Shown here one piece after another: positions 1-41,694 of a stretch of DNA of 64,000 nucleotides. Under the pieces are notes generated by a model. That model worked only from the letters and a program-made list of their open reading frames with translations. It had not been told where the DNA came from and searched no databases. The stretch's first letter is position 1; every line of letters starts with the position of its first letter. The position numbers were made by a program, and so were the translations under genes. The stretch comes from Lytechinus pictus (Eukaryota). The stretch covers positions 5,582,001 through 5,646,000 of the forward strand of contig NC_087251.1 of the NCBI RefSeq assembly GCF_037042905.1, given 5' to 3'.

Positions 1-17
1 ATTAGGTGATTACTCAC

Positions 18-241
18 AAACTCGATGAGTTCATATAGCAGCATTCGAATGAAGACTTCTACGGGCTTCCTGTGGTCACGGATAGGTCTCACAGAAACAT
101 CGCAATATTGATCTTTCAGTTTCCATACGAGTGCCTTGGTAGAATTGTCTCTCATATGATCTGGGTTGTAACCAAAGGTTGTAACATGATTATGGACATG
201 GCATTGACGTTTAAATTCGATTGTAATCTTTTGCACAGTTA
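18..241 (-). CDS. nAChR paralog B exon 2 (...STKALVWKLKDQYCDVSVRPIRDHRKPVEVFIRMLLYELIEF); gene continues beyond the left edge
   Basis: Open frame clearly homologous to gene A exon 2, with a GTGAGT donor at the same codon. Acceptor is either before 241 (AAG) or before 160 (CAG); both are phase 1. Confidence 0.85.
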
Positions 242-19083: not shown

Positions 19084-21171
19084 TATGTCCCGGGTAAGTG
19101 CGAGATATGTGTATAGAATGACATGAATATTATTCGTTAAATTAAAAAAAACCTTTATTTTCATTATATTTCATCGACCATTTTTTTAAATCGTGACATC
19201 GCAAGCTCCATGCGTGTGCCTTGCTTATCTAAACAGAATCTTGCATTCGCCAAAATTGATTTTTATTGATTTAAATCACGCTGACTCCTCTTCGCCCCCA
19301 TGTTACTCAAAGATATAACCTTAAATTGAACTTAATCTTATTCCCATTCTAAAATGCAATACCAAAATATATTATTTATTCTAATAGAAAGAATTATAAT
19401 CCATATTCCTGGTCATTAAAGGTACTGTTTTTCACTAAAATAATACTTATTTAATCTAAATGAAACTGTAATAATATTTTAAGATATACAACGTAACAAT
19501 TTCATGTTCTTATGCGTGATAGACATACACACTGCAAAGCCACCACCAGCTTTTTTTTCAAGGGGGTGCGATTTGGGAAAAAATTGACAAAACTTACCAC
19601 CAAATCTAATATCAGGCAGTGGTGAGGGTGGCACAGATATATACTACATAATCTAGAGTAGATATGAATATAACAACACTGATATTAAGAACATGTCGCC
19701 CTTCTAAAAAGCCAAACCCCCACCCTCCGAATCCCCCCCCCCCCCCCGTGATGCCCTGTAAACACAAGCGATTGCTCACCCCCTTTTATAAAATAACAAA
19801 AAAGTGCAAGGAATCTGTTTGGTCGTATATATCACATGTCCTCAGCCATGATATCAAATTTTACTTGACAAAATCATATTTCGAAGGATATATTATGTTC
19901 ATATAAGAAAAATTAATCCATTATATACTAGCATAAGATAAGATATAATCATAACAGGCTATAAACACTTGGTTTTGATCAAAATTACTTCTTCTCATAA
20001 TTATAATTTTGAAAGATACCTTAATTAAGTACATGTACCAAAAATGCGTGTATTTTAGTAGACTCATCAAACAATGCGTAAAAATTGTGAGACGAAATTA
20101 CTGGAGGTAAGTTTAGTACCACGTTTGTATCGTGTCTGTATAGTATCTCTCCTTTTCAAGGGAGATGTCACAACTAAAGATTTTAGCCGGCGAACTGTAT
20201 GGCAAACAGTTTTCATATTAAATTCCATTAGTTGATGTCAAGATTTTTTTTAACATAACAAAATAATTTCTTGGTAAAAAGAACTTGATATCTTGATATT
20301 TTGTGCTGTTAAAAGGTTGATATCAAGCAATATTATCTAATGAGCAAAGTGCTTAACATACGTACGTCGGTATACGGTCGCTATATCGTAGAGGTGTGAC
20401 ACAATTCATGTATATCAACATGCACCAGCTCCCCGAGAGCTCCATTGGATTCAGTTGCACTACTTATCTTGGATTCAATTCCAAATAATGCATTTTTTTA
20501 CATAGAAATTAATTATTTTTGTTTTAATCAATTTAAATCAGCAAAAATAATTTACTTTTGAAGGAATTGTGAAAAGTTATTCATCTCTGTTTGTAAATGT
20601 ACATGCAGTAAATATATCTGGGACAAGTTTGGACAATGTATATTCCTTAAAACTGGAAATATGATTTATTTTTCTTAAACATATAAATTAAGCCCATTTG
20701 GTTTAAGAGGTTCAAAAAATTAAGCATCATTGTTTATTGATAGGGGTAAGACAGATGATTGACACTCCAATGTAAAACGTCAATTACCTGATTTTGAAAA
20801 TATCAAATTTGCACTTCAGAAAAGATTGCAAAACATATTGCTAAGTAACAATACGTAGTGAAATGTCGAAAAGTACTTTGCCAGTGGTGACATACAATCA
20901 AAAATATATAATTAAATATATATATAATATATATATATAAGTAAATAAAATAGAACGGAGGGGCTTCACGGAAAAAACATGCTTGTATGACAAGCCCCTG
21001 TGACTTAGTTTCAATACGTACAGGAAAAACAAATGATCCAGTGTGACGGAAGCAAAAGAAGAGACGCAATGTAAACATTTTATATTTCAAGTTCACTTTC
21101 AATTATTGTTCATTCAGTTCTCACAACAGAACGATTTTTATCTTGACTTCGTAAACAAAGCTTTATTAAAA

Positions 21172-21430
21172 TCACTTTAGAAAACTGATAAGAGCAAACA
21201 TGACATTTCCTATCATAGCTAAACAAAGAATGGTTCCGCAAAAAGAATCGAAGGCTAAAGCAAGCTGTCTCCAAATAAACTGGTTTACATCTTTACTTTC
21301 CAAGTCGACTGCAGGTCGCCGAAATTCTTCTGTCCTCAATTCTGTGTCTAGAATAGTGGAAGCTGTGTTCCCATTGGTGATGACCTCTTCGTTCCTGGTA
21401 ACTTTATTTTCTTGTAAGATGTACAGCTTC
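21172..21430 (-). CDS. nAChR gene A exon 8 (MA helix, M4, stop)
   Basis: WRQLALAFDSFCGTILCLAMIGNVMFALISFLK*; phase-2 CAG acceptor. Confidence 0.88.
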
Positions 21431-24400
21431 CTGTACACACAGGAGGAAATATAAACTGTTTATTTGATCTTTCAGACGTAAAGATAAAACCTGTACCATG
21501 ACAAAGTCTCCATGATAATAAATGATAATGCAATTCAGATATTTGCTAGTTGTATTTACTGAATGTTTACTTCAGTAAGTTTTAGTTATATCAATCAGAA
21601 TTAGTTTTAAAGTCTATATCAGGGATACTCCTTAATAAAATTTCACAGAGTCTTCATATTCATAATCATATCTAAGCATTCAGCTATAATACTTATAAGT
21701 AGTTTTTTTATTCAGTTATGTTTTCGTGTTGATATAGTATTTAAATTTCAAACGATGTTTGGCAATCCATACCACTGTTGGTTCTAGTGGAGCAATGACA
21801 GCCTATATGATCATCATTAGACCTTAGTGCTGCGTTCGACACTATTGACCATAGTATACTTGCTAAAATATTAGAAACTGATTTTGGGATAACAGACTCT
21901 GCTTTGTCTTGGTTGCAGTCTTACCTTTCCGATAGGCAGCAACAAATATCAATTGGTGACATTACCTCAAAGAAATTTGACGTTAGATGGGGCATTCCCC
22001 AAGGGTCCGGGCTCGGACCTCTCCTTTTTCCCCTCTATTCTAGTAGACTTTTTTCGGTTATCAAAGCACACTCTGAAAAAATATATTGTCACTGCTATGC
22101 AGATGACACTCAATTATACATTTCCTTCAGCCCAGTCAGGGAACAAGAACAGTCCTGTGTTTTGGCTCTTGAACACTGTCTACAGGAACTTCGTAGATGG
22201 ATGTTGAGCAGTAAGTTGAAACTTAATGAAAGCAAAACTGAGTTTCTTTTCATTGGAACACCTAGACAAGTGTCTAAACTAAATATAGATTGCATAACAG
22301 TTGGAAATACTGTAGTCAAGCAGACCATGGTTGCAAGGAACCTTGGTGTCTGGTTTGACTCGCAGCTAAACATGGAAACCCACATATCCAAAACATGCAA
22401 AACTGTCTTCTATCATCTCTACAACTTACGTCATATCCGAAAATACTTAAGCAGCACATGTATTAATACACTGGTCCATGCATTTGTAACAAGCAAATTG
22501 GATTATTGTAATGGATTACTTTTTGGCTTACCAGATTCTCAGATAAACAAATTACAGCGTGTTCAAAATGCATGTGCCAGACTCATTTGTAATTCCCCAA
22601 ATTTTCCCATGTAAGGCCCCTACTCCACGATCTACATTGGCTTCCAGTACGTCAGCGAATCAAATTCAAAATACTGCTCCTAACATATAAGATACTACAT
22701 GACATGGCCCCCACCTATCTCAGTGAACTCCTTAAATTAAAATCACCCACCCAGTCTTACGGGCTTCGTAGTTCCCATGACACAATGCTCCTCAGTCTCC
22801 CACCATGTAAAACAAAGATTACACCAGGTGACCGTGCCTTTATCAGTGCTGCACCCAAACTCTGGAATAGTCTCTCTTCCTCAATAAGAAATGCATCCTC
22901 TGTCAACTTATTTAAAACTAAACTGAAATCCCACCTCTTTCAAGAGAGTTTTTAATAAATAAGTCACTTTTTTGTTATGTATTTTGTAGAAATAATTAAT
23001 CTTTACTTATTTTTCTTCGATTAATTTAGCGAACTTAAATTTACTTCTAAAATATTTACGTATCCTGTTAATAATTGTTTTTCTGCTTATCTGTTATGTA
23101 TTGTAATGCGCAGTTGAGTATATCTAAATAGAAATTGCGCAATGTAAATTTACAATTATTATTATTATTATTCTAATGGTGGTTATTTTCTAGAAATACT
23201 TATTACGGATGGTGGGTTCATTATTTCTTGAACTATATGTCTTGGGACTTCTCGAGCCGATAAACTATTTTAACATGTTTAGACTGCCCTAATTTCTGGC
23301 TCATAAGACATCTGCTTAAGTAATGTATAAGGACATGCCTTTTGGTTAATAAAATGTACACCCGTACCCCACGTATGAACTGATTAACCATCTGGGGCCT
23401 TGTTGCAGGCTTCATCCATCACTAAAATAAAATGCAAATCTCAAATGCGAGCTTCTATTCTTTATCAGCTTTTTCGGGAAATACCAGTGTATAAGCCCAC
23501 CTATTAACACCTAATAATCTTAATCTTAGGTATGCCATGAGAAGATACCAACGGGTCACAGTGATTCAGTTCGCTTTTCGTCTCCAACGCACAGGTGACG
23601 CCACACATTATTATTAAAAAAAAAGAAAATACCGTAGCACTTTGATGCAGTTCACCAAATGATATAAACCTACCTAATGTAGCTTCTAGTTCCAGATCTG
23701 GAGAACCAAGGCAAAAAAAGTTTAATGACCCATCGTGGAGGCTTGGTGTTGGTATCATGGTGGTAGAGACGTAAAACAATGACTGATAAAAACACAGCAC
23801 ATCCACTGAGGATGATCAGCATGAAGAAACAGGTGACTGTATGAGAGAGAGAGAGGATGGGCGAAAGAGGGATTGGCTTGACAGAATATAAGGGGTGAAG
23901 ATGGAGACGAAATAGAAGAAAGAGATACACAGGTGGAAAAGAATGTACGGGAAATGAGTAAAATTCGTTTTCTGTTTGCCTATACAATATTTTAATTGCA
24001 CCATAGAATTTGGAGATTCAGATAATCTAGGATGTCATGTAGATACGTCACAAAGATTTGTTTTACTTATATTTATTTCCATTCGGTCAAAAATTCGATA
24101 TACCGACACAGTGGATAGGCACATATTAGACAAATTGTCTTTACACAATTATAATGAATATAGATAATGGGAAAAGACCTCTCACTACATGCACGGTGTA
24201 TTATAATATTTAGGTACCTAGGATAGATCTTGGTTCTCCAATGGGCGGCATCTTGTCCGCCACTAACTGCTGAAAGAGTGTAAGCGCCAGGAGGTTGGTG
24301 ACGGTGAAGGTCACCTTCTCTCCTGAATCAGGATGCAACCAGAATCCAACCAGCATAAGAGCTGTCAGAAAGACGGCAGGTACCACTACATTGGTAAGAA

Positions 24401-26648
24401 AGAAACCGGACTCCCTTTGGAAAGTTAGTTGGTACTCAATATGGTCATTGGGGTAGGGACAACAAAGGTACTTGATACTTCGATTGGTTGCCGTGAAGTC
24501 GACCAAAGACCAGATACCATTCTTGACATAGCGAGCTTGGGAGGCATCTACGTCATCCTTGGCGAAGAAGCGCATCTGTTGTTAAAGGGGTGACAAAGAA
24601 CAATAAATTATATAATCGGAGAATACGTGTGTTTAACGTTCACTTATAACTGTCCATATATTAAGTTACATAAAGTAACACTTAACAAAAATATGTTGAT
24701 AAGACCAGTAGGTCATTTTGCCTTAACATCATGCAAATCCAAGGAGTGGAACTGTATCCTTTTTTCTATTCTCGAATGGGCGAGCCAACCATATCCTAGA
24801 TACTTTATATATTCAGCTATTGTTGTTATTTTTATTATTATTATTATCATCATCATCATTATTATTTTTATTATCATCATTGTTATTATCATTATTATTA
24901 TTATAATCATTATCATTATTATTTATTATTATCATTATTATTATTATTACTATCATCATCATTATTTTTATTATCATCATTGTTATTATCATCATTATTA
25001 TAATTATTATCATTATTATTAATCATTATCATTATTATTATTATTATTACTTATTTTCACCAAAATGTATCATTTTTACTGTTCTACTCACTACAATTTT
25101 TTTTTTACATTTTCTGATGTTTCCCTTTAAAGCGGCAATGGCTGTGGTGTTTATCGTTTTAGTTGAACTTCGATGATTTGAATATTGTCAGACATATTGA
25201 TAGTGAATATCTTTACTACTAAAAGACAAAGTTTATCGATAAAAAAGCCACAAAATATATTCATAAAAGTCGATAGGCGCCTTGTCAAGGATTGCCCGTT
25301 CCACGCTTCACCCGAGAATGCGATAGTCTCTCCAACTATTTGTTTTATTCGTTCATTCTTATACATATTAGATGATCTAGACCTTCCGTTGAAATCAATC
25401 ATCAGCCTTTTGTCAGAGATATCTTCAATTATTCAGGCTGCAACTGTGATAAACATCTCCATAGACCTTGATCTTCCTCCTATTATAACCAAGAAAGATA
25501 TGAACTAATCTATAATCGTTTGATATTTATGGCCTACCAGTTATCAAAATTGAAAAATCAATAATTAATAGCCATTTATTTTGTGTTCCAGTGAACCGAT
25601 TTCATTGGATGGTTTTCTAACGAAAACAATTTTGCTTACTAAAATGTAGTACGATTTTTGTTAGAGTGTTATTTAATTTTCAAACGATCTTTTCGAAATA
25701 AGAAGAACGGGTATTATTCGTTTTTTTTTTTTTTTCAAATCACCAGTGATTTTTATCACAAGAAGACAAAAAAGTCAAACGTAACGGTTGAATGCTGATT
25801 TTTTTTTCAGGACTCGTACCTTACTTTCATCGAGCGTCCAGGGATAAAATGTTAAGACACACTTCTGGACATCAAATGGATAATATTGTATGTTCATCTT
25901 ACAAGCACTGGTAGTAATTGCTGGAAATAGCCAATCCATTGCCCCCGTGTATTGGACTATAACATAGGTCTCAGCTTCTGGTAGGCTGATGAAATTACGA
26001 TCAATGCTGTATAAAAAAAAAAGTGAAATTGATTCCTGTGATTTATAGTCACACCGCATTACAGCCGTGAAACCCATGGCCCTGGGAAGCGGGAATGCAG
26101 AGTGTATGCAGCACCCCCTGGAAATCTGGTAGGTGTGCTAAAATGAACGACATTTTGTAGGAAAACCCATTTTGTTATATTTATATCAGCGTATACTCCA
26201 CCCTAACTTAATTATTAATACTACTGACGAAAGAAGTTTTTGATACGGAATGGTGTGACAGAATGTTAGACCTTCATGTCGAATATTGCGTGTAAATTGA
26301 CTGGAAAATGAGAATGATACCATTGAGAACAAAAGATGCCAGGGATTCGGTTATTTCGTCCATCTTAAACCCTTTTTCATCTCAAATCATCTACTTTTTT
26401 CCGCGTTGCATCCCCCCTTTCCTATCCTGTATGCACGCGGATCATAGTTCTATACAAAATTAATATAATATTTAAAAGCGTTGTTGAGAAATGAGAAGAA
26501 ATCATTATAACCTGCACAAACGAAAACTAGTTAAATCGATTTTTAAAAAATAACGAATGTGGTATACCTTACTAATTTGCCTATAAATTGTAAACAATCA
26601 ATGGAAAGGCATGTATAAATCAAAGGGCTGCATTGATAATTCTACAGT

Positions 26649-26695
<47 letters not shown>

Positions 26696-29600
26696 GACTT
26701 GCCATACATGTATTTTATTTATTGTTTTGCATAATATATTTGACATTGTCGTATGTATAAATTTCATGTCATTCGATTTACATTATTAATGTAATTATTT
26801 CAAACAAATAATAATTAGGCCGATGATCTTTCAAACGATAACGACATAGAATGATATATTGTTGATGATCATACATAATGTTGATAAGAATTGTGTTTAT
26901 CATGATAGTGATAATAATAATAATAATGATAATAACGATAATAATGAAACATAATAATTATATCAACAACAAAAATGACAATAATAATAAGGGTAATTAT
27001 GATAACAATATTTAAAATCATGACAATGGCAATCATATGGATTATAAGATGATATGATGACAGTATAAAGTGATGACGACGAAAATGATTATTCTGATAA
27101 TAACTACATGTATAATGATAATAATTATAATGATTAGGATAACGATTATGATAACTTAAGGGGGAATTTTATTGTTAATTACCATTATTAACAAGACTTG
27201 ATGGTGGTGGTGGTGATCAGATAATGATCACAATGATGATGATGAGGAGGAGGATGAGGATGGTGATGATGAGGATGATTTATGATGGTGATGATGATGA
27301 TGATGAACATGATGGTGATGATGATGGTGATAATGGTGATGATGGTGATGATGATGGTGATGATAGTGATAATGGTGATGATGATGATAGTGATAATGGT
27401 GATGATGATGATGAGGTGGATGATGAGGATGATGGCGATGATGATGATGCTGATGATTGTGATGATGATGGTGATGATTATGATGATGAGGATGATGGTG
27501 ATGATGATGATGATAATGATGGACAGTGTTTGTGTGTGTAAAAAGAAACGAAATACATACTCTTCATCTAAGACGACATCAGGTCTCCATACTTGATGCA
27601 TTTTAAGTGTCAGATTGTAAATACCACCATTCTCCTCTGGATCCCATTGGAGATACTCATCAACCCATTGCTGTTACCATAGAAACGACAAAATTGAATT
27701 GAATTATCTACCCGTTGTGTACGCAGCAATACATCACTAGAAGAAGAAGATCCACAATATATTTCCTTTCCATGCAAGTATGAAAATTATTTTCCGTTTT
27801 AATGATGTTCAACAGTTGAATAAGCTAAAATCAAAATCAACTCTAAGAAACAAACAAACTTACCAGCCTCATATTGGTACGAATGGTAATAAGTTGCATA
27901 GTTTCGTCCTACAGGGATAGAGGGAAAGAAGTTTGAAACATGATGTGTATGTGAAACAAACAGTATGGCAACGGGTATTTGGTGTAATAGAGGAAACAAA
28001 TAAAAGATTGAGAGCTGGGGACGAAAAAAGGCGTTAACAGTTTCTGAAATGAGGCTTGACTGAGCCAGAGATAATGTGGGAATTTAAGCCTTTTGCCATT
28101 TAAGTACAACACATGTGTTTACATGTTAAAGAGATAATGGATATAATCTTGCTGCCCAATTTTGTAGCTGTTGAATACGAATTCCTGGATTAGTGATGGA
28201 ATATTGTAGAAAGAAGCCCATTGCGTTAATCAAATCGGGATAGAACTTATGAACATGATGAATGAAGAACATTGTAACAGGCAGACTGGTCAATGAACCT
28301 TCTGATTCTATATAGAATGTTCCTTAGCTGTGATACAGATATAAGAGATATGATGCGACATTGACATGTGGGGGTAAAACTGCATATTCATGACGGTGTG
28401 CATGTAACTATTTCAGAAAATATTGTTTTAAACTTTAAAATTCTACAAGTTCTTTACTTGTTGTCGGACTTTGAGGAATATTTTCAGCATGTTGATTAGT
28501 GAATTTTAATCTATTTATTTAAATATGATTATGTGCCCCTTTAATTACGTTTTGGGTATTTTTCAAACTCAAAGAACTCATAGCACCAACAATGTCACCA
28601 TAATGAATACAGTATTTGAGAAATGACAGTGCGACTTCAGACAAAAGAGAAATGTCATTGCAGAATTGTATTTTAGTTTGCTGTCCAGACAATATATTCA
28701 TATTCCACAAGCAAAGATTCAAAATGAAAGTTTGTCCTTGTCTGAAACCCAGTGTCTAAATACTGTGTAAGATGCGCCATGTTGTATGATCTTTACCGAT
28801 ATAAATGGGAGGGTTTAGTTTACCCAACAATTATGTTCATTTTAAACACAATATTACGATACAATTCATACACTGCATTTACTACACCATACTTATGATA
28901 TACATGTATATATGTGGTTATCACCAACAATTTTTTTCCACTTTTTATTCTCAATGCTATCCATCCTCTAATTAATCGTCATTGCGTTGAATAATCAAAG
29001 GCCTTGGCAGATATGCCATTAGCATCATTTTAATCCTTCTTCCACTTTTAATTGACTACGAACAATAATTCATTCTCGCTTGATGGAAGTCCATGGAATT
29101 CGTTTATGATACTCATCAATGGTGATGATGTGAGGCAAGAAAGTTCATCCGGATGCTTGGTAATTTTGGTAGAAATAATTCTTACCGTATTATATTAATT
29201 GTCAGGATTGACATGTGTGTCATAAATAATTTATGCATATTGCAGATTAAAATTAACTTTGAAAAGATTTCACTTCGAGATCTCTTTTTTTTTCAGGCCA
29301 AAACTGTATGTATCTCATGGACACAACATTCAACATTTTTTACCTAAGATATTTGGATTGAAAAATATATAGTTTAGATTCTACATTCGACTGCAAAAAA
29401 ATATTTTATTATTGTGCTTCTTCACTTCATTTATTCCAATAAACTTGATTATTCAGATGCATCGACCTTTCAATACATACATACATACATACATCTCGCC
29501 AACGAAACCGTCACTACACCAAACGATCATGTACGTCATTCCATATAGTTCATTTTTAATTTATTGAATATACACCTTCATATCTGTGGCACACACAGTA

Positions 29601-32600: not shown

Positions 32601-33875
32601 AGAATACCACCCGATAACGGGTTACTGTTAATAACATACCATGGCATCTAAGTGGGCATTAAATTTATTCATCTATACTTTGGATTATTTTTTAAAATTC
32701 AGGAATTGTGTAGGGGGGGTAATCACAGGATATATATACTGTATCTCATTACATATAATGTAACATCAACGCCATTGTGTTGAATATGTCTAATTGGCGC
32801 CTTGCTATACGCTTACTGCCAAATAAAAAAAATGAATTACATCCAAATCCCCTGCGACATTATGCCTCATCACATTAAATTACCTCAATGCTAGTTTATG
32901 AGTGGATTTGTGAAAATTATTAGGACACTAACCCGACCATCTAATATGCTTGAAGTTGTATCTTTTCTTAATCAAGAACACGACTTTATGAAGTGCTCTT
33001 CGTGTGAGCGGGTCCATCATTGGATCTTTCAGAGTCTCTCACGATATCAAATTCAATGAAATATCAGTTAATAACACTGTACTTTAACTTAACCACGTCA
33101 AATGTTTCATGTTTGAGGTTACACGACATTTCTCTGGCGACAATTGCTCCGGTCTTAACTTTTTCTAAGATATATAAGTTTAGGGTTAGGGTTGCAATAG
33201 GGTTTTATATTAGGCTTGGGGTATAGTGTTAAAACCAGGGTTGAAGTTGGTAATTCCGTTAGTGCGTGGAATTAAGAGCGGAGCAAAATGTCATGGAACT
33301 GCGTCTGAGAGTGTCGTTCACACGATGGCCCTTAACTTCGAATTCAAGGTTCCTCGTGTGAACAAGTCTTAAGTTACAACATAAATTTTTGTGCAACAAG
33401 CCCAATATGAACTTACCAGTTTGACGAGTTCATAAAGAAGCATTCTGAAGAATACCTCGACAGGTTTGGTGTGATTTTTGACAGGTCTAACCGACGTATC
33501 CCCATAGTTGGACAAGAGCCTGGAAACAAGTTCTTTCTCTGTCGTTGTCGTGTTTGGTGATGAGCAGTCGGTCCTATCGGATGCCTGGACTACAAAAATC
33601 AATAAAATAATAATCTAAAGAATCTACGACATTGATATCATTGCAGTCACAGCAGAGTCAGTTCAATTCAATTATTTTTTCAAGCATTGTTATCATTAAT
33701 AGTACTAGTAGAAGTAGTAACAGTAGTAGTAGAAAGGAAGAAGAAGTAGCAGTAGCAGCAGTAGTAGTAGTAGTAGTAGTGGTAGTAGTAGCAGTAGTAG
33801 TAGTATAGTAGCAGTAGTAGTAGTAGTAATAATAGTCGTAGTAATAGTAGTAGTAGTAATAATAGTAGTAGTAGC

Positions 33876-33954
<79 letters not shown>

Positions 33955-36900
33955 ATAGTAGTAGTAGTAGTAGTAGTAATATTTCTTAAAACTGTCAGAT
34001 AGTTCATGTTCAAGAGTTGTCAATTCAATTTCTGTCCAAAAATGTCCTTTCCGAAAAATTGAATAATTGGAGTACTATGTAATTAAAAGATTGAACCCTT
34101 GTTAGAAATTTGGAAAAAAAAATGATAATTTGGTAATTTCATGCATCACTTGTTGTTACTTGTTTACAGCACACAGAGAGAAATCGAGGAAAACCAAGCA
34201 GTGAGAAAGATGCGTATACTTTATTGTTAAACAACTATTTACGATAATTATCTTTTTACAGAAAGCTCGTAAGCTTATTACTTTCATGGCCTTTCTTATG
34301 TTTCAAATCATTTACATTATCTTTGAATTCACGAATTTGTTCTTTTTAATGCTTGTCGGTTGCTGGAATATTTCCCGCCAGAGTCAATAAAATGATCATT
34401 AAACACCGTTGTGGAGTTACCCTGAGCTACCGTGTATCTATGTTTTTAAAACATCAACATCTATAAGGTACAAAACCAGGTACTAAACGGTGTGTTTTCA
34501 TATTTACAAAATTTCATGACATTCAAGGAGTTACAGACAACAAATCTTTTAACAAAATAATGCTATCTAGAGCTTTCGCTCTACTTCACGACTCTGATAG
34601 TATTGGTCACCAAAGCACAGTAAATTTTTATTCAAGACATGATTATCCATTACCTTTCACACATAAGTAAGATAATTCAAAGCTGACTACTGACAGGTTA
34701 AAGCCCGGGGGGGGGGCCACTTACATTGACGAGTGGATACCATGCGCGACCAAAAAAACACGTAAAAAGGGATGTCTTTTTCAAGATAGGGCACGTTACG
34801 TACGTAACGTGATAAGGGTGTCAAAAACACATAAATATTGAAAAAAGGGTATCTATTTCGCTCGGAAAATATACGTGTTTAGAGTCAAATATGCGGGGAT
34901 GATAAAACAAAATCAAAATGTTGTATAAAGGATGTCCTTTTTGCCCCAACACTACGTGTTTAGAGTCCGATTTTCGCGAGGTGTGATAGGTGCATGGGGC
35001 CCTACTAAACCAAAATAATGGTGTGTAAAGGTAAAACCGACGACCGACGGACCCGTAACCTAACAATAAAATATCGCTGTACTTGTTTAGGGGCTCAATT
35101 CTGGGAATACTTGCCAATAGTATTTGTTTCCAATACTTGTTAAGGGTAGGGTTTCACACGCCAATACTTGTTAAAGATCCAGACCGGACCCGAAAATGAA
35201 ATTGATAAATTATATACCAATCGAAAGCTTATAAGCTACTAAATACACCAAGGTATGCTTTATGCATTTTCACCGCTTCCCAGCTGAGTATTTTCCTTAA
35301 GAATATTCCAATTATCGGGTTTCGAACCCCGCTTAGAAAATAGGCTTTATTGTGCTTTTCACCTGCCTCGAGACCATGACATCACGTTGTGTAAGAAGCG
35401 TCGTGATTCCATAGGTTTGTACACAAAAAAACTGGGTGATTTTTTTGCTTTCCAGATAACGCATTTCATTCTCTTCACTTCTATCACAGAGGGATATCAC
35501 ATATATTTTTACCCACACGCTTGAATTTATGAAATCTGCAGTTTTGAACTAGTTTTTGCCATATTTTATTTTCTGCTTATTTGGCGCAGATTTCAATTCT
35601 ATCTGCATTTAGATTATGTATAACAACTTTTCCTGACATAGCAATTTAGGCCCAATAAGAGCCAAACAAAGAAATCACAAAAAAGGTAGTGAATAGTTGT
35701 AGGTTTACAACAATTTGAACAGTGAATAATTTTGAGTGCCATTTTCATCTGAAAACGAAAAAAAAAATGGATTCATAACATGGAAATGGAAGAAAATACC
35801 CAATGCTTTTGTACACAAACCTATGGAATCACAACCCTCCTGACACAACGTGACGTCATCATTTCCAGGCGACGTGGGGGTGCTCAATCGAAGCGTACTT
35901 TGGAGGAGCAGTTTCTTTGATTTTATTTAATATTTTTAACTATTGGAAGGAGATATATGTAATATTTTTGGTATATTCGTATTGTATGAATCATTACCTT
36001 TATTTTGATATATGATTGTTTTTACACCGGTCAGGGTCTTTAAGGGGGGCATTTTCAGAATATAGAAAATACGTGTTTAGGGTGCTTTTCAAGACCCCGT
36101 GGTCGCGCATGGTATCCACTCGTCAATGGAAGTGCCCCCCCCCCCCCGGGGGATAAAGATCTAAACTAATCAGATTTCTTCGTACCTGCAGATCGCATGT
36201 TCGAATCTGCAACCCCTTTTACACCTTCAAGGATGCAACGTGGATCATCACGGATCTCAGTCATTGTTAATCCGGGGTGTCAAATTTGTATTTTTATATT
36301 GTCGGAGTAAATACGGATTTAACTGGGCAATTACACGGAAATTTAAGGAAAAGTACGGCTTCAAGGATAGACAAGGTAGCACTAGGGATCTGCTTGATAA
36401 GCTACCGGGAGTCAACACGGAATACACGGATGTTACTGGGTCCTTACACGGACCTTCACGGCGGCTTACGGTCTATTACTGGGATATCTCTACAGCATTG
36501 GGCAAGATTTAAGTTTCTTTTCTACGTCTGAAGCGTACACATACATGGCCATGAACACGGACTATTGTTCAAATATGCAAACAATTGAAACAAATTAGAC
36601 CCCGGATAAAGGCGGTATATCAACAAGGATCTCCCGGTTCTTATAGGGAGCTTCCCGGATTCATTCGGTATATAGCTACACAGATGAACAAGGTGGCTAC
36701 ACAGATTGACACGGAGGATTATTATCCGTCCGTGTACTCCGGAAGGAAAAATTAAACGTGTTCGATTTTTTTATCGATGCCGTATAGGCCCTAGTATTCT
36801 TCACGGTCTCCCTCTAACCTCTCTGTAATTTTAATTTGTCTAAAAATTATAGCTGATGGAAATTTAATTCATAGAAATGATATATATTCCTTTGTTTTAA

Positions 36901-39900: not shown

Positions 39901-40943
39901 AAAATACCCCTCCACTCTCATTTTGGTATCACACTGCATTTGATTAACACATGTTATTTCAAAGAGGTATATCTACTACACTAGGATATACTTTCTTCGG
40001 GATTTTGCAAACTTATATACAGTCTGGAAAATAACAGAATGAAGAGAAATTTCAAAAAATATATATAATACGTTAAGAATGGGTAATTTTAATTTCATTG
40101 TACTCTGCTCTTCCTACTTAAAGAAATCAAAGAAACTGATAATAAATTACCTATCATAAATTGTGGTGTTCCTTTAAGTATGCCATCCATAATCATTTTC
40201 AAATTAATAAACTAGATGGTTGATTTTCCTTTTAAACATTATTGAAGCATTCATCATTCGCACTCTAATACTCAATCATATTTTAGAGACTTACCCAAAA
40301 GAATATTACCAGCAGAAATTCGCATCATACCATCATGATTTGATTTTTTTATTCGCCATTGCTTTCGTGACTTCTTAATTTCTGTAATGTTTAGTCATTT
40401 AATGCATGTTTTATTTTGAATGTGAAAGATTTTTCCATCCAACTGTCAAGCTGCGATCATTATGCTTTTGGTAAATCTTAAAATTTTCAGTTAAGCATGA
40501 GAAAACTTTAGCTCACACCAATGTATTGTTATGTTTTACATCCCCCTTTAACTCCATCCCCATCACCGGTATTGCAATAATTTCATTTACATCATTAATA
40601 TTTCATACAGTTATAACTGTGATAACAATTATATGCTCCATATTAATTACTATATGTTAAGTAATGATACATTACAATACAGATTTACAGTAGCAGTCGT
40701 AATTTTCCTCTCTGAAATTCATTAAGCAACCTTTCTTCTTTTCTTCTATTTATTTTGTTGATGTATTCGGTACGTTTTGTAAGATGTTATAGTACAAAAT
40801 TATTGAAACAGATGAGTCTAGAAAAAAATAAAGAAGTAAAAACGAGTATATTATAATTATGGTAACTTACCTGCAATTAGATACCATGATACAAAACAAA
40901 TTAAGAAAACATATTTCAATACGATGCTGCAAGCGGGAGACAT
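21172..40943 (-). CDS. Nicotinic acetylcholine receptor alpha-type subunit (alpha9/alpha10-like Cys-loop channel), 8 coding exons: join(40943-40871,33589-33417,27908-27864,27670-27561,26006-25820,24575-24218,23836-23674,21430-21172), ~455 aa
   Basis: All introns GT-AG with consistent phases; exon lengths sum to 1368 nt. Signal peptide, VRPV motif, WxPDV loop A, Cys-loop C-x13-C (CKMNIQYYPFDVQKC), vicinal CC in loop C, SGEK-M2, four TM segments. An in-frame upstream ATG at 41003 would add 20 aa. Confidence 0.92.
21814..23172 (+). mobile_element. 5'-truncated L2/CR1-clade LINE (RT C-terminal half, 3'UTR, (ATT)n tail), antisense in nAChR intron 7
   Basis: LDLSAAFDTIDH, GIPQGSGLGPLLF, YADDTQLY, SKLDYCNGLL, LHWLPV motifs; one frameshift ~22605; stop at 22955; GCGCA..TGCGC tail hairpin. 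Confidence 0.92.
23674..23836 (-). CDS. nAChR gene A exon 7 (M3 and MX helix)
   Basis: CFFMLIILSGCAVFLSVIVLRLYHHDTNTKPPRWVIKLFL; (TC)n-CAG acceptor, AG|GTAGG donor. Confidence 0.9.
24218..24575 (-). CDS. nAChR gene A exon 6 (loop C, M1, M2)
   Basis: NGIWSL..YLCCPYPND..PDSGEKVTFTVTNLLALTLFQQLVADKMP; CAG acceptor, G|GTACC donor. Confidence 0.95.
24820..25055. repeat. (ATT/ATC)n microsatellite
   Basis: Directly visible. Confidence 0.9.
25820..26006 (-). CDS. nAChR gene A exon 5 (Cys-loop and loop B)
   Basis: SACKMNIQYYPFDVQKCVLTFYPWTLD; poly-T CAG acceptor, AAG|GTACGA donor. Confidence 0.93.
27200..27522. repeat. (GAT/GGT)n microsatellite next to the exon 4 donor
   Basis: Directly visible. 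Confidence 0.95.
27561..27670 (-). CDS. nAChR gene A exon 4 (QWVDEYLQWDPEENGGIYNLTLKMHQVWRPDVVLDE, 110 nt)
   Basis: CAG/GTATGT borders; W-x-D..L-x-WDP and WxPD motifs; conserved 110-nt length. Confidence 0.93.
27864..27908 (-). CDS. nAChR gene A exon 3 (DETMQLITIRTNMRL, 45 nt)
   Basis: AG/GTAAGT borders; 45 nt matches the conserved DEKNQ exon of nAChR genes. Confidence 0.9.
28130..28330 (-). mobile_element. Highly degenerate L2-like LINE fragment
   Basis: RFD*RNGLL and RIQQLQNWAAR resemble the L2 motifs RLDYCNGLL and LQNxAAR. Confidence 0.4.
29941..30810. mobile_element. Non-autonomous TIR transposon (Tc1/pogo-like)
   Basis: TAGGGGAAGGTGGGGTAAGTT...AACTTACCCCGCCTTCCCCTA; internal GGCTCAACTT repeats. 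Confidence 0.7.
31035..32588. mobile_element. Non-autonomous TIR element with an internal pyrimidine-rich minisatellite and a nested CACT MITE
   Basis: TA|CCCCGTTTAGATCT...AGATCTAAACAGGG|TA. Confidence 0.65.
33417..33589 (-). CDS. nAChR gene A exon 2 (VQASD...EKELVSRLLSNYGDTSVRPVKNHTKPVEVFFRMLLYELVKL)
   Basis: TTTTTGTAG acceptor, GTAAGT donor, N-terminal helix and VRPV motif. Confidence 0.9.
33700..33980. repeat. (TAG)n microsatellite
   Basis: Directly visible. Confidence 0.95.
34704..36150. mobile_element. CCCGG-terminated TIR element
   Basis: CCCGGG(G)nCCACTTACATTGACGAGTGGATACCATGCGCGACCA is inverted at ~36100-36150. Confidence 0.8.
35175..36039. mobile_element. TTAA-target MITE nested in the CCCGG element
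   Basis: TTAA|AGATCCAGACCGG...CCGGTCAGGGTCT|TTAA. Confidence 0.8.
37451..37889. mobile_element. TIR element with palindromic GGCTCGCGGTTCAGAACCGCGAGCC subrepeats; truncated second copy at 39107-39488
   Basis: CGTGTTTACACTT...AAGTGTAAACACG termini; two highly similar copies. Confidence 0.8.
38702..38864. mobile_element. Harbinger-type MITE (CTG TSD)
   Basis: CTG|GGGGCCTGTTT...AAACCGGGCCC|CTG. Confidence 0.7.
40871..40943 (-). CDS. nAChR gene A coding exon 1 (signal peptide MSPACSIVLKYVFLICFVSWYLIA)
   Basis: Hydrophobic N-terminus; CAG|GTAAGT donor; phase 1 fits the next exon. Confidence 0.75.
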
Positions 40944-41694
40944 CTTTACAGCTTTCCAGTAGCATCCATTCGCATGTTGACTTTCATGGTATCCATGCAG
41001 CATCACTCGTGATTATCAGTTTCCTTGATGATCTGCCTTAAAAAGGACACTTATGCAAGCACGTCGTATATAAAACCAAAGTGGATTTAAATTATCATTT
41101 TTAATATAATGTTGCTGCAGTTTCATTATACGTGGAATATCTGTAAAAGCAAATTGAAGATTTACTTTTGAACATCAATTAGCCCTAAGGGCCTTGAGTA
41201 AATGTTACACAAGATTTTTTTCGTCGCTGGAAATGCACGTTCTCTGTCCGATTTCATCTCACAAAAACAGAAAAAGCCTGGACGATTAAACTTGGTTCTA
41301 AATTATGACTTCGATATTAACAGCACGAGCGTGATATACCGCCAACAAAGCTCATTACATCTAGCCAAGAAAACGCGTCCAAAAAAGCAATAACAAGCCA
41401 GCTTTTATGCATGCATCACAACTGTTGATAATGGTTTTAATCGCATTATCATGGTGATGAAAATAAGAAATCGGTCGATCTCGTGGAAAGTAGGTCTATC
41501 AGTTGTCGCTTTCTACTTTTTCTCAACGGTTGAACAGACACATTCAACTAATCAAATAATATAAGTGGCCAAGTTATCTGCGCTCGATGAATAATAGATA
41601 ATTGTGTTGGCTTATCCATAGCAAACCCCGAGTGTATCTTGGAATATTCATAAAGTATTTATGTTGCCTTATAATCTACCAATCAAAATAAGTA

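Follow-up and report, generated by a model that had tools for sequence, protein, structure and literature searches.

Vertebrate nicotinic acetylcholine receptor (nAChR) subunits alpha7, alpha9 and alpha10 and the amphioxus and hemichordate models named "alpha9/10-like" share a common fold, a Cys-loop, a vicinal cysteine pair, the tryptophan of loop B, the first tyrosine of loop C, and a cation-type second transmembrane segment (M2). The same features are found in the gene considered here, which lies on the minus strand of a 64-kb stretch of the Lytechinus pictus genome (contig NC_087251.1, positions 5,582,001 to 5,646,000; the whole stretch is called the window, and positions are counted from its first letter). 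The best sequence and structure match of this gene is alpha7, and its clade-mates are Branchiostoma, Saccoglossus, and other echinoderm alpha9/10-like models. Compared with alpha7, alpha9 and alpha10, the window gene has Asp, Asn, and Asn in place of the loop A tyrosine, the loop D tryptophan, and the second loop C tyrosine, respectively, and its loop B reads Y-P-W-x-L, with Tyr instead of the canonical Gly at position 208, where the known subunits have G-S-W-x-Y. The nearest named non-echinoderm relatives are the amphioxus and Saccoglossus models; the "alpha-10-like" names are automatic and should not be taken as functional assignments.

Nicotinic derivatives with altered ligand specificity have been described in other marine animals. 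Cephalopod chemotactile receptors (CRs) are reported to be cation channels that give no response to acetylcholine (PMC11526382, PMC10338036), and they reportedly have hydrophobic, poorly soluble ligands and show diversifying selection in the pocket (PMC11526382). The initial annotation of the window gene drew an analogy with these receptors, which is loose and holds in one respect: both are lineage-specific, duplicated nicotinic derivatives with a non-classical orthosteric site that appears to be no longer acetylcholine-like. It does not extend to the residues themselves, as the new residues of the window gene, Asp and Asn, are polar or acidic rather than hydrophobic, and the alpha-type hallmarks (the vicinal cysteines, the loop B tryptophan, and the first loop C tyrosine) are retained; moreover, its pocket shows no excess variability, and the gene belongs to a small independent echinoid branch. 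In our tree, which contained no CR sequences, it falls into an echinoid-only clade (18 tips, support 0.99) and thus outside the cephalopod CR clade.

Like the window gene, Alpo4 from Alvinella and the products of lophotrochozoan expansions are orphan nicotinic-like subunits arising from expansion in marine invertebrates. Alpo4 is reported to give no response to acetylcholine or serotonin in screens; its key aromatics are in place, whereas the vicinal cysteine pair is missing (PMC10338036). The window gene shows the reverse pattern, with the cysteine pair kept and three aromatics lost, and it comes from a deuterostome lineage. The paper on lophotrochozoan expansions contains no mention of "purpuratus" or "aromatic" (PMC6896357). 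In echinoderms, a sea-star single-cell study reports that alpha-9-like and alpha-10-like genes mark neural and sensory clusters, with no kinship to the echinoid clade shown there (PMC10396339), and a four-species urchin embryo study, in its passages on nicotinic receptors, uses automatic subunit names and leaves the binding residues unexamined (PMC12467107). A full-text literature search, covering the main texts of papers, found no description of the echinoid clade or its pocket.

Residues of the agonist site and their conservation

The window gene comprises eight coding exons between 41003 and 21172 and encodes a product of 475 amino acids, as delineated by tblastn with P0002, a Lytechinus pictus model named "nAChR alpha-10-like", and by a script placing GT-AG borders. 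All seven introns are of the GT-AG type, and the 475-aa open reading frame (ORF) of the exon model is free of interruptions. P0002 maps on the window as eight collinear pieces with 95–100% identity, and 472 of 475 residues are identical between the two proteins, the mismatches being at positions 5, 31, and 262. The segment 24218–27908, singled out in the initial annotation, corresponds to exons 3–6 only and is a part of this larger gene. The motif TIRTNMRL is in exon 3, PDVVLDE/D spans the exon 4/5 junction (27670-27561 and 26006-25820), and YLCCPYPN is in exon 6; with exon 6 as a database query, sea-urchin nicotinic-type models were the only matches.

Binding-pocket residues were assigned using two independent alignments, one made by HMMER between P0002 and human alpha7 (E 6.2e-56), gap-free in every binding loop, and the other by MAFFT from 71 relatives, whose consensus was used. 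Both yield the same register and the same three replaced positions of the aromatic box, Trp to Asn, Tyr to Asp, and Tyr to Asn. Namely, Asn114 of loop D is opposite alpha7 Trp55 (MAFFT consensus W at 114), Asp152 of loop A is opposite Tyr93 (consensus Y at 152), and Asn259 of loop C is opposite Tyr195 (consensus Y.CCP.PY at 252–259). In loop A, which reads L-D-E-D, the change of Tyr to Asp is accompanied by a change of the adjoining Asn to Asp. The retained residues are Trp210 of loop B (alpha7 Trp149; consensus GSW at 208–210), Tyr252, the first tyrosine of loop C (Tyr188), and the vicinal pair Cys254-Cys255 (Cys190-Cys191). Hence, of the five aromatic residues forming the acetylcholine site, two (the loop B tryptophan and the first loop C tyrosine) are present and three (loops A and D, and the second tyrosine of loop C) are absent. 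In loop E, Ile170, Asp178, and Leu180 are opposite alpha7 Leu109, Gln117, and Leu119.

These alignments bear out the initial annotation, made from the sequence motifs, of an alpha-type nicotinic-family subunit with vicinal cysteines in which three aromatic-box residues are replaced and the cysteine pair, the first loop C tyrosine, and the loop B tryptophan are kept; the motifs quoted there are all on the minus strand. The realignment considered there as a way to restore the second loop C tyrosine fails: both P0043 (CCPYPW) and domain 2 of P0001 (CCQYPY) carry a tyrosine two residues past the cysteine pair (CC+2) together with an aromatic residue at CC+4, and therefore Tyr257 of the window gene is not a shifted second loop C tyrosine. 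The CC+2 residue is His or Ser in two Diadema members, and the CC+4 residue is Phe in four sister paralogues. Orthology to a characterised acetylcholine-gated subunit, also envisaged in the initial annotation, did not turn up, the close relatives all being automatically named echinoid models.

The complete signature, Asn / Asp / Trp / Tyr / CC / Asn for loops D, A, B, and C, is present in all four members of the orthologue group, P0002 from L. pictus, P0003 and P0004 from Strongylocentrotus purpuratus, and P0005 from Diadema setosum. The overall identity of the latter three to P0002 is 79, 65, and 60%, respectively, and Diadema split from the camarodont urchins roughly 200 million years ago or more. 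Despite the 60% identity of the Diadema protein, the N/D/N pocket is unchanged between the Lytechinus, Strongylocentrotus, and Diadema orthologues. Within this group, 183 of 278 positions are invariant. We considered as directed changes those positions at which the orthologues are fixed for one residue and 14 canonical relatives share another with a conservation of 70% or more. There are 13 such positions, and six of them lie at or beside agonist contacts (W55N, Y93D, N95D, S148P, Y151L, and Y195N in alpha7 numbering). At the loop D position, Asn is found in all eight tips of the inner clade, and Trp in 14 out of 14 canonical relatives compared.

To place these replacements among relatives, we used a full-library phmmer search yielding 12,188 sequences at E up to 0.001, of which the best 150 along with named hits and cluster members were aligned to P0002 (236 domain hits). 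The aromatic census was made on 142 CC-bearing domains with all five positions aligned, taken from 175 complete domains of the closest relatives; the figure of 142 may be slightly low, as an alignment shift in the P0011-type branch hides the cysteine pair. Five aromatics are kept in 99 domains, four in 25, three in 10, two in seven, and one in a single domain. Half of the eight domains with at most two aromatics belong to the N/D/N orthologue group (all among the seven with two). So few aromatics are therefore unusual, although P0049, P0050, P0067, and P0169 are independent examples, and the recurrence of the signature across the orthologues shows that it is not noise.

The order of changes can be followed on the tree (FastTree, LG+G, 184 domains, P0002 positions 62–380), in which 20 representatives are named, most tips are unnamed, and no sequence is confirmed as vertebrate alpha9, alpha10 or alpha7. 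The 18-tip echinoid-only clade is nested in a group of 53 tips with Branchiostoma, Saccoglossus, crinoid, asteroid, ophiuroid, and holothurian "alpha9/10-like" models. Outer members of this group (hemichordate, amphioxus, crinoid, asteroid) have the canonical residues, Trp, Tyr, Trp, and Y-CC-..-Y or F. In the echinoid clade, loop D has Tyr or Phe (also Ser or His); then, loop A Asp or Glu appears in one sub-branch (P0043, P0001 domain 2); loop D Asn characterizes an eight-tip clade (support 1.00), in which loop A has Glu, Val, or Asp; and, finally, Asn at CC+4 is found in a four-tip clade (support 0.98) formed by the window gene, P0003, P0004, and P0005. Judging by this topology, the gene belongs to a branch that is specific to echinoids, has duplicated in tandem, and stems from the "alpha9/10-like" group of ambulacrarians and amphioxus.

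The site has been remodelled in another way in the sister echinoid branch P0011/P0012/P0016/P0047, which keeps the loop A tyrosine, the loop B tryptophan, and the cysteine pair (shifted by one residue) and has Glu for the first loop C tyrosine and Trp five residues past the pair (E-S-C-C-Y-N-x-S-W).

Outside the pocket, the protein retains the features of the family. Pfam matches on exons 4, 5, and 6 are all above the cut-off, and both domains are precomputed for the near-identical P0002. The Cys-loop, read from the translation, is C189-KMNIQYYPFDVQK-C203, with 13 residues between the cysteines and a YPFD core; C189, P197, D199, and C203 are invariant across the 71-sequence alignment. Also kept are the loop A motif WxPD, Arg270 ahead of M1, and Pro326 of the M2-M3 loop. 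M2 is of the cation type, with G301-E302-K303, L312, and D323 aligned to M2 of alpha7 (-1' Glu302, 9' Leu312, 20' Asp323); across the 71 aligned sequences, L312 does not vary, and conservation of G301 and E302 is 90% or higher. The AF2 model built from the same alignment is confident (mean pLDDT 86.6, pTM 0.74) and shows the expected beta-sandwich and four helices, at 273–295, 302–324, 334–360, and 428–474. In a Foldseek search it was closest to chains of alpha7 and of muscle-type nAChR, with 9lh6_A at the top (E 2.4e-36, TM-score 0.83 by target); among the nAChR chains listed, TM-scores by target range from 0.79 to 0.90. As far as can be read from these residues, everything required for assembly, gating, and cation conduction is in place, and the channel is predicted to be cation-selective.

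The gene is transcribed. We mapped two assembled and two raw RNA-seq runs on positions 21100–24600 of the window, so that introns 1–5 rest on the exon model. Exons 8, 7, and 6 are joined exactly at the predicted sites in two contigs from two studies, one from run X1 (3151 nt, depth 19.8) and the other from run X17 (3181 nt, depth 2.1). The joints run from 21429/30 to 23673/74 and from 23836 to 24218, with CT..AC on the plus strand, that is, GT..AG on the strand of the gene, and both contigs extend beyond 24577 into exon 5 sequence; hence exons 5–8 are transcribed and spliced as in the exon model. Between the X17 contig and the window there are five differences, of which three are synonymous, one results in Ile262Leu, and one is in the 3' untranslated region (UTR). 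None of the sequencing runs listed as carrying the gene sequence is recorded as RNA.

Predicted ligand and alternative roles

The interpretation that we favour, though tentatively, is that this functional gene encodes an alpha-type subunit of a cation-selective pentameric Cys-loop channel of the nicotinic family, whose site turned, step by step, into a polar acidic pocket accepting a small cationic ligand other than acetylcholine. We infer the loss of acetylcholine potency, the nature of the ligand, and the subunit stoichiometry. High-affinity binding of acetylcholine is unlikely, because only the cation-pi tryptophan and one tyrosine remain, and a pocket lined by Trp and Asp would favour a hydrophilic cationic ligand. 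The subunit thus probably senses something other than acetylcholine.

The mechanism would then be as follows. The orthosteric site has exchanged its aromatic cage for a polar acidic pocket with new carboxylates and amides: Asp replaces the Tyr of loop A, Asn replaces both the Trp of loop D and the second Tyr/Phe of loop C, and loop E contributes Asp178. A small cationic ligand, amine-like or otherwise positively charged, would be held by Trp210 and the new carboxylates at the subunit interface, loop C would close upon it, and the cation pore would open, as in other family members. Acetylcholine would be a weak agonist at best.

If the ligand is indeed not acetylcholine, this would be a deuterostome case of a neurotransmitter-gated channel re-tuned to another cue, and the intermediate states in the neighbouring paralogues would allow the conversion to be rebuilt residue by residue (Asp152, Asn114, Asn259, Tyr208). 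A homozygous knockout line has been reported for L. pictus (PMC9245184), the source of the closest named protein; therefore the hypothesis is testable in vivo, and the subunit is a well-defined target for de-orphanisation. If, on the other hand, the subunit is acetylcholine-gated or accessory, the gene is merely one more divergent representative of a familiar family. Ligand repurposing as such, suggested in the initial annotation, we likewise infer from the sequence, and none of the observations made points to the sensory role raised there. A more far-reaching scenario, unlikely in its entirety, is that urchins, independently of cephalopods and with the opposite chemistry, made a nicotinic branch into receptors of non-cholinergic cues, with an acidic polar pocket whose only cation-pi residue is the tryptophan, a hydrophilic cation in sea water or body fluid as the ligand, expression in peripheral or epidermal sensory cells, and a four-gene array keeping the intermediate steps.

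Several observations weigh against a ligand other than acetylcholine or, at least, against a sensory one. Firstly, one or more of the five aromatics are missing in 43 of the 142 CC-bearing relatives, and divergent pockets, as judged from this census, are fairly common among invertebrate nicotinic-like genes. Secondly, the 11 pocket positions show no excess variability in the 18-tip echinoid clade (their mean entropy is 1.37 and that of the extracellular domain 1.47, a ratio of 0.93; P 0.64 by permutation); in the outgroup, the same test gives 1.70 vs. 2.17 (P 0.93). The clade sequences thus carry no signature of ligand-driven diversification, that is, of a chemosensory-type radiation. Thirdly, no reads were found on exons 6–8 in raw RNA-seq runs X21 and X22, which bear the same species label and were sampled at about 6% each, and therefore expression is restricted or low rather than ubiquitous. 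Fourthly, as the loop B tryptophan, the first loop C tyrosine, and the cysteine pair are kept, the subunit may have some sensitivity to acetylcholine or choline. Lastly, an aromatic residue at position 208 is found in 11 of the 73 domains without an aromatic loop A residue (10 of these 11 come from the echinoid clade) and in none of the 143 domains with one, and Tyr208 could refill the site of the loop A tyrosine, partly rebuilding the box.

Possible, though doubtful, is the role of an accessory structural subunit, which would yield no agonist site in acetylcholine-gated heteropentamers formed with more canonical echinoid alpha9/10-like subunits. Some vertebrate CC-bearing nAChR subunits occupy the fifth position. 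The principal face (loops A and C) and the complementary face (loop D) are both altered in the window gene, so that no classical site would be formed on either side, and its genome, indeed its own contig, also carries more canonical relatives, e.g., gene D of the array described below, with the loop A tyrosine and YVCCPHNF in loop C. Conservation of the pore and coupling residues, too, is what any assembling subunit would show. However, the changed residues are invariant in Lytechinus, Strongylocentrotus, and Diadema, and Trp210, Tyr252, and the vicinal disulfide are kept, which is unexpected for an unused site; the replacements, moreover, are specific (Asp, Asn) rather than drifting.

We regard it as unlikely that the channel is still gated by acetylcholine or choline through a rebuilt box, in which Tyr208 and, in some species, Tyr257 at CC+2 would take the place of the lost tyrosines in space, and the carboxylates would attract the quaternary ammonium. 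The loss of the loop A aromatic does co-vary strongly with the replacement of the loop B glycine, as Gly208 is found in 113 of the 143 domains whose loop A residue is aromatic and in seven of the 73 in which it is not, and the box keeps Trp210 and Tyr252. Hence the term "dismantled", used in the initial annotation, may be too strong: three aromatics are lost, but Tyr208 co-varies with the loss of the loop A tyrosine. These counts, however, come from kindred sequences and do not represent independent events. Furthermore, Tyr257 varies among the orthologues, with His or Ser in its place in the Diadema members, and coexists with a CC+4 aromatic in the paralogues, and the loop D tryptophan has no substitute at all.

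Relaxed constraint on a gene heading to a pseudogene, which might be suspected in a duplicating family with many divergent copies, is highly improbable given the intact ORF with seven canonical introns, spliced transcripts in two studies, a pocket identical in orthologues at 60–79% identity, and the synonymous nature of three out of four coding differences in the second sample.

Gene model, paralogue array and intronic repeats

Features of the window are listed in the table below. Apart from the exon of a neighbouring gene at 6–155, no nicotinic-like exons were found elsewhere in the 64-kb window, and eight of the nine long ORFs scanned elsewhere in it have no Pfam match. An Rfam scan of 21000–41100 gave no match.

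Table. Coding exons of the window gene, the neighbouring exon, and intronic repeats (window coordinates; exon residues are numbered in the 475-aa product)
Feature	Position	Strand	Content	Evidence
Coding exon 1	40871..41003	-	aa 1-44, including the start codon and the signal/leader region	tblastn of P0002, 95% identity; GT donor in exon model
Coding exon 2	33417..33589	-	aa 45-102; N-terminal helix, beta1	tblastn, 100% identity; AG/GT splice sites
Coding exon 3	27864..27908	-	aa 103-117; beta2, loop D with Asn114 (for Trp55) and Arg116	tblastn, exon model, alpha7 alignment
Coding exon 4	27561..27670	-	aa 118-153; loop A WRPDVVLDE, Asp152 (for Tyr93)	Pfam Neur_chan_LBD E 1.3e-9; tblastn, exon model, alpha7 alignment
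Coding exon 5	25820..26006	-	aa 154-216; loop E, Cys-loop (C189-x13-C203), and FYPW of loop B, including Trp210	Pfam Neur_chan_LBD E 7.9e-15; tblastn, exon model, alpha7 alignment; spliced contigs run from exon 6 into exon 5 (loose end 24577)
Coding exon 6	24218..24575	-	aa 217-335; loop F, loop C YLCCPYPN, TM1, TM2 (-1' Glu302, 9' Leu312, 20' Asp323)	Pfam Neur_chan_memb E 3.7e-12; tblastn, exon model, alpha7 alignment; joint 23836 to 24218 in spliced contigs
Coding exon 7	23674..23836	-	aa 336-389; TM3 and start of intracellular loop	tblastn, exon model; both flanking joints in contigs of runs X1 and X17
Coding exon 8	21172..21430	-	aa 390-475 and stop; intracellular loop, MA helix, TM4	tblastn, 100% identity; joint 21429/30 to 23673/74
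Gene B, first annotated coding exon	6..155	-	P0008-like neighbour; other exons just beyond the window, C7:5573001-5582000	tblastn of P0008, 94% identity
Retrotransposon fragment, intron 7	21811..22955	+	267-aa ORF matching Pfam RVT_1	Pfam E 3.1e-21
Short repeat (about 34 nt), intron 7	23552..23585		probable dispersed repeat	31-38 nt contigs in runs X1 and X17
Microsatellite, introns 2-5	24818..25055		(TAT)n, about 78 copies	
Microsatellite, introns 2-5	26651..26692		(AT)21	
Microsatellite, introns 2-5	27233..27521		(ATG)n, about 96 copies	
Microsatellite, introns 2-5	33700..33978		(TAG)n, about 93 copies	

The initial annotation spoke of a tandem expansion. The window itself has one complete gene and one exon of a neighbour; on its contig (C7), exon-6-like matches reveal four same-strand paralogues at about 5.360, 5.539, 5.576, and 5.606 Mb, spanning about 250 kb, and a fifth relative is located on contig C5. 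The term is therefore overstated, as the family is small rather than massively expanded; the 113 exon-level matches of the ligand-binding domain (LBD) model in the 811.7-Mb genome cover all Cys-loop genes and do not represent a gene count.

Several stages of the pocket change traced on the tree are represented by copies in the array. In gene D, the loop A tyrosine is kept, loop B has FGPW, and loop C has YVCCPHNF; gene C has FLPW and YICCEYPW; gene B has Asn in loop D, Glu in loop A, FYPW in loop B, and FKCCQDSF in loop C; and the window gene (gene A) has Asn, Asp, FYPW, and YLCCPYPN, respectively. More generally, the paralogues, i.e., gene B/P0008, P0010, P0014, P0006, P0043, P0044, and the P0011-type proteins, resemble the window gene in exon structure and membership in the 18-tip clade (support 0.99), three of them being on the same contig and strand, and differ from it in the pocket, where they stand for earlier or alternative stages. 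Unlike the window gene, P0044 and gene D keep the loop A tyrosine; P0043 shares the loop A Asp, but has Tyr in loop D and Trp at CC+4; gene B, P0010, P0014, and P0006 share the loop D Asn, but have Glu or Val in loop A and Phe at CC+4; and the P0011-type proteins have Glu for the first loop C tyrosine. The Diadema model P0001 is a fusion of an A-like and a C-like unit, which suggests that the adjacency of A-like and C-like genes is old.

Some additional observations concern the array and the family. In gene D (L003:2932-4713), the most canonical member of the array, the equivalent of exon 6 is in two pieces about 1.4 kb apart, and P0044 aligned by tblastn to the first of them reveals an in-frame stop just upstream of loop F. 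This could mean an additional intron or, alternatively, that the copy is damaged. S. purpuratus has two N/D/N members (P0003 and P0004) and the window genome has one exon-6 match above 65% identity, which could be due to a lineage-specific duplication, a loss, or an assembly gap. P0001, P0009, P0042, P0045, and many other long "uncharacterized" models each merge two to four neighbouring nicotinic-like genes and therefore carry several LBD domains per protein; tandem arrays are common in the family and are often mis-merged by automatic annotation.

The introns of the window gene contain several repeats. Over the retrotransposon fragment of intron 7 and beyond it, raw RNA reads of runs X21 and X22 stack on 22738–23205 with fixed mismatches and loose ends, as transcripts of other repeat copies would give. 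The 34-nt segment of the same intron is covered by the short contigs at depth 89–131 in runs X1 and X17 and by a few raw reads running into unrelated sequence; it matches no Rfam family and is probably a short dispersed repeat. The intron microsatellites yield long spurious ORFs in six-frame translation.

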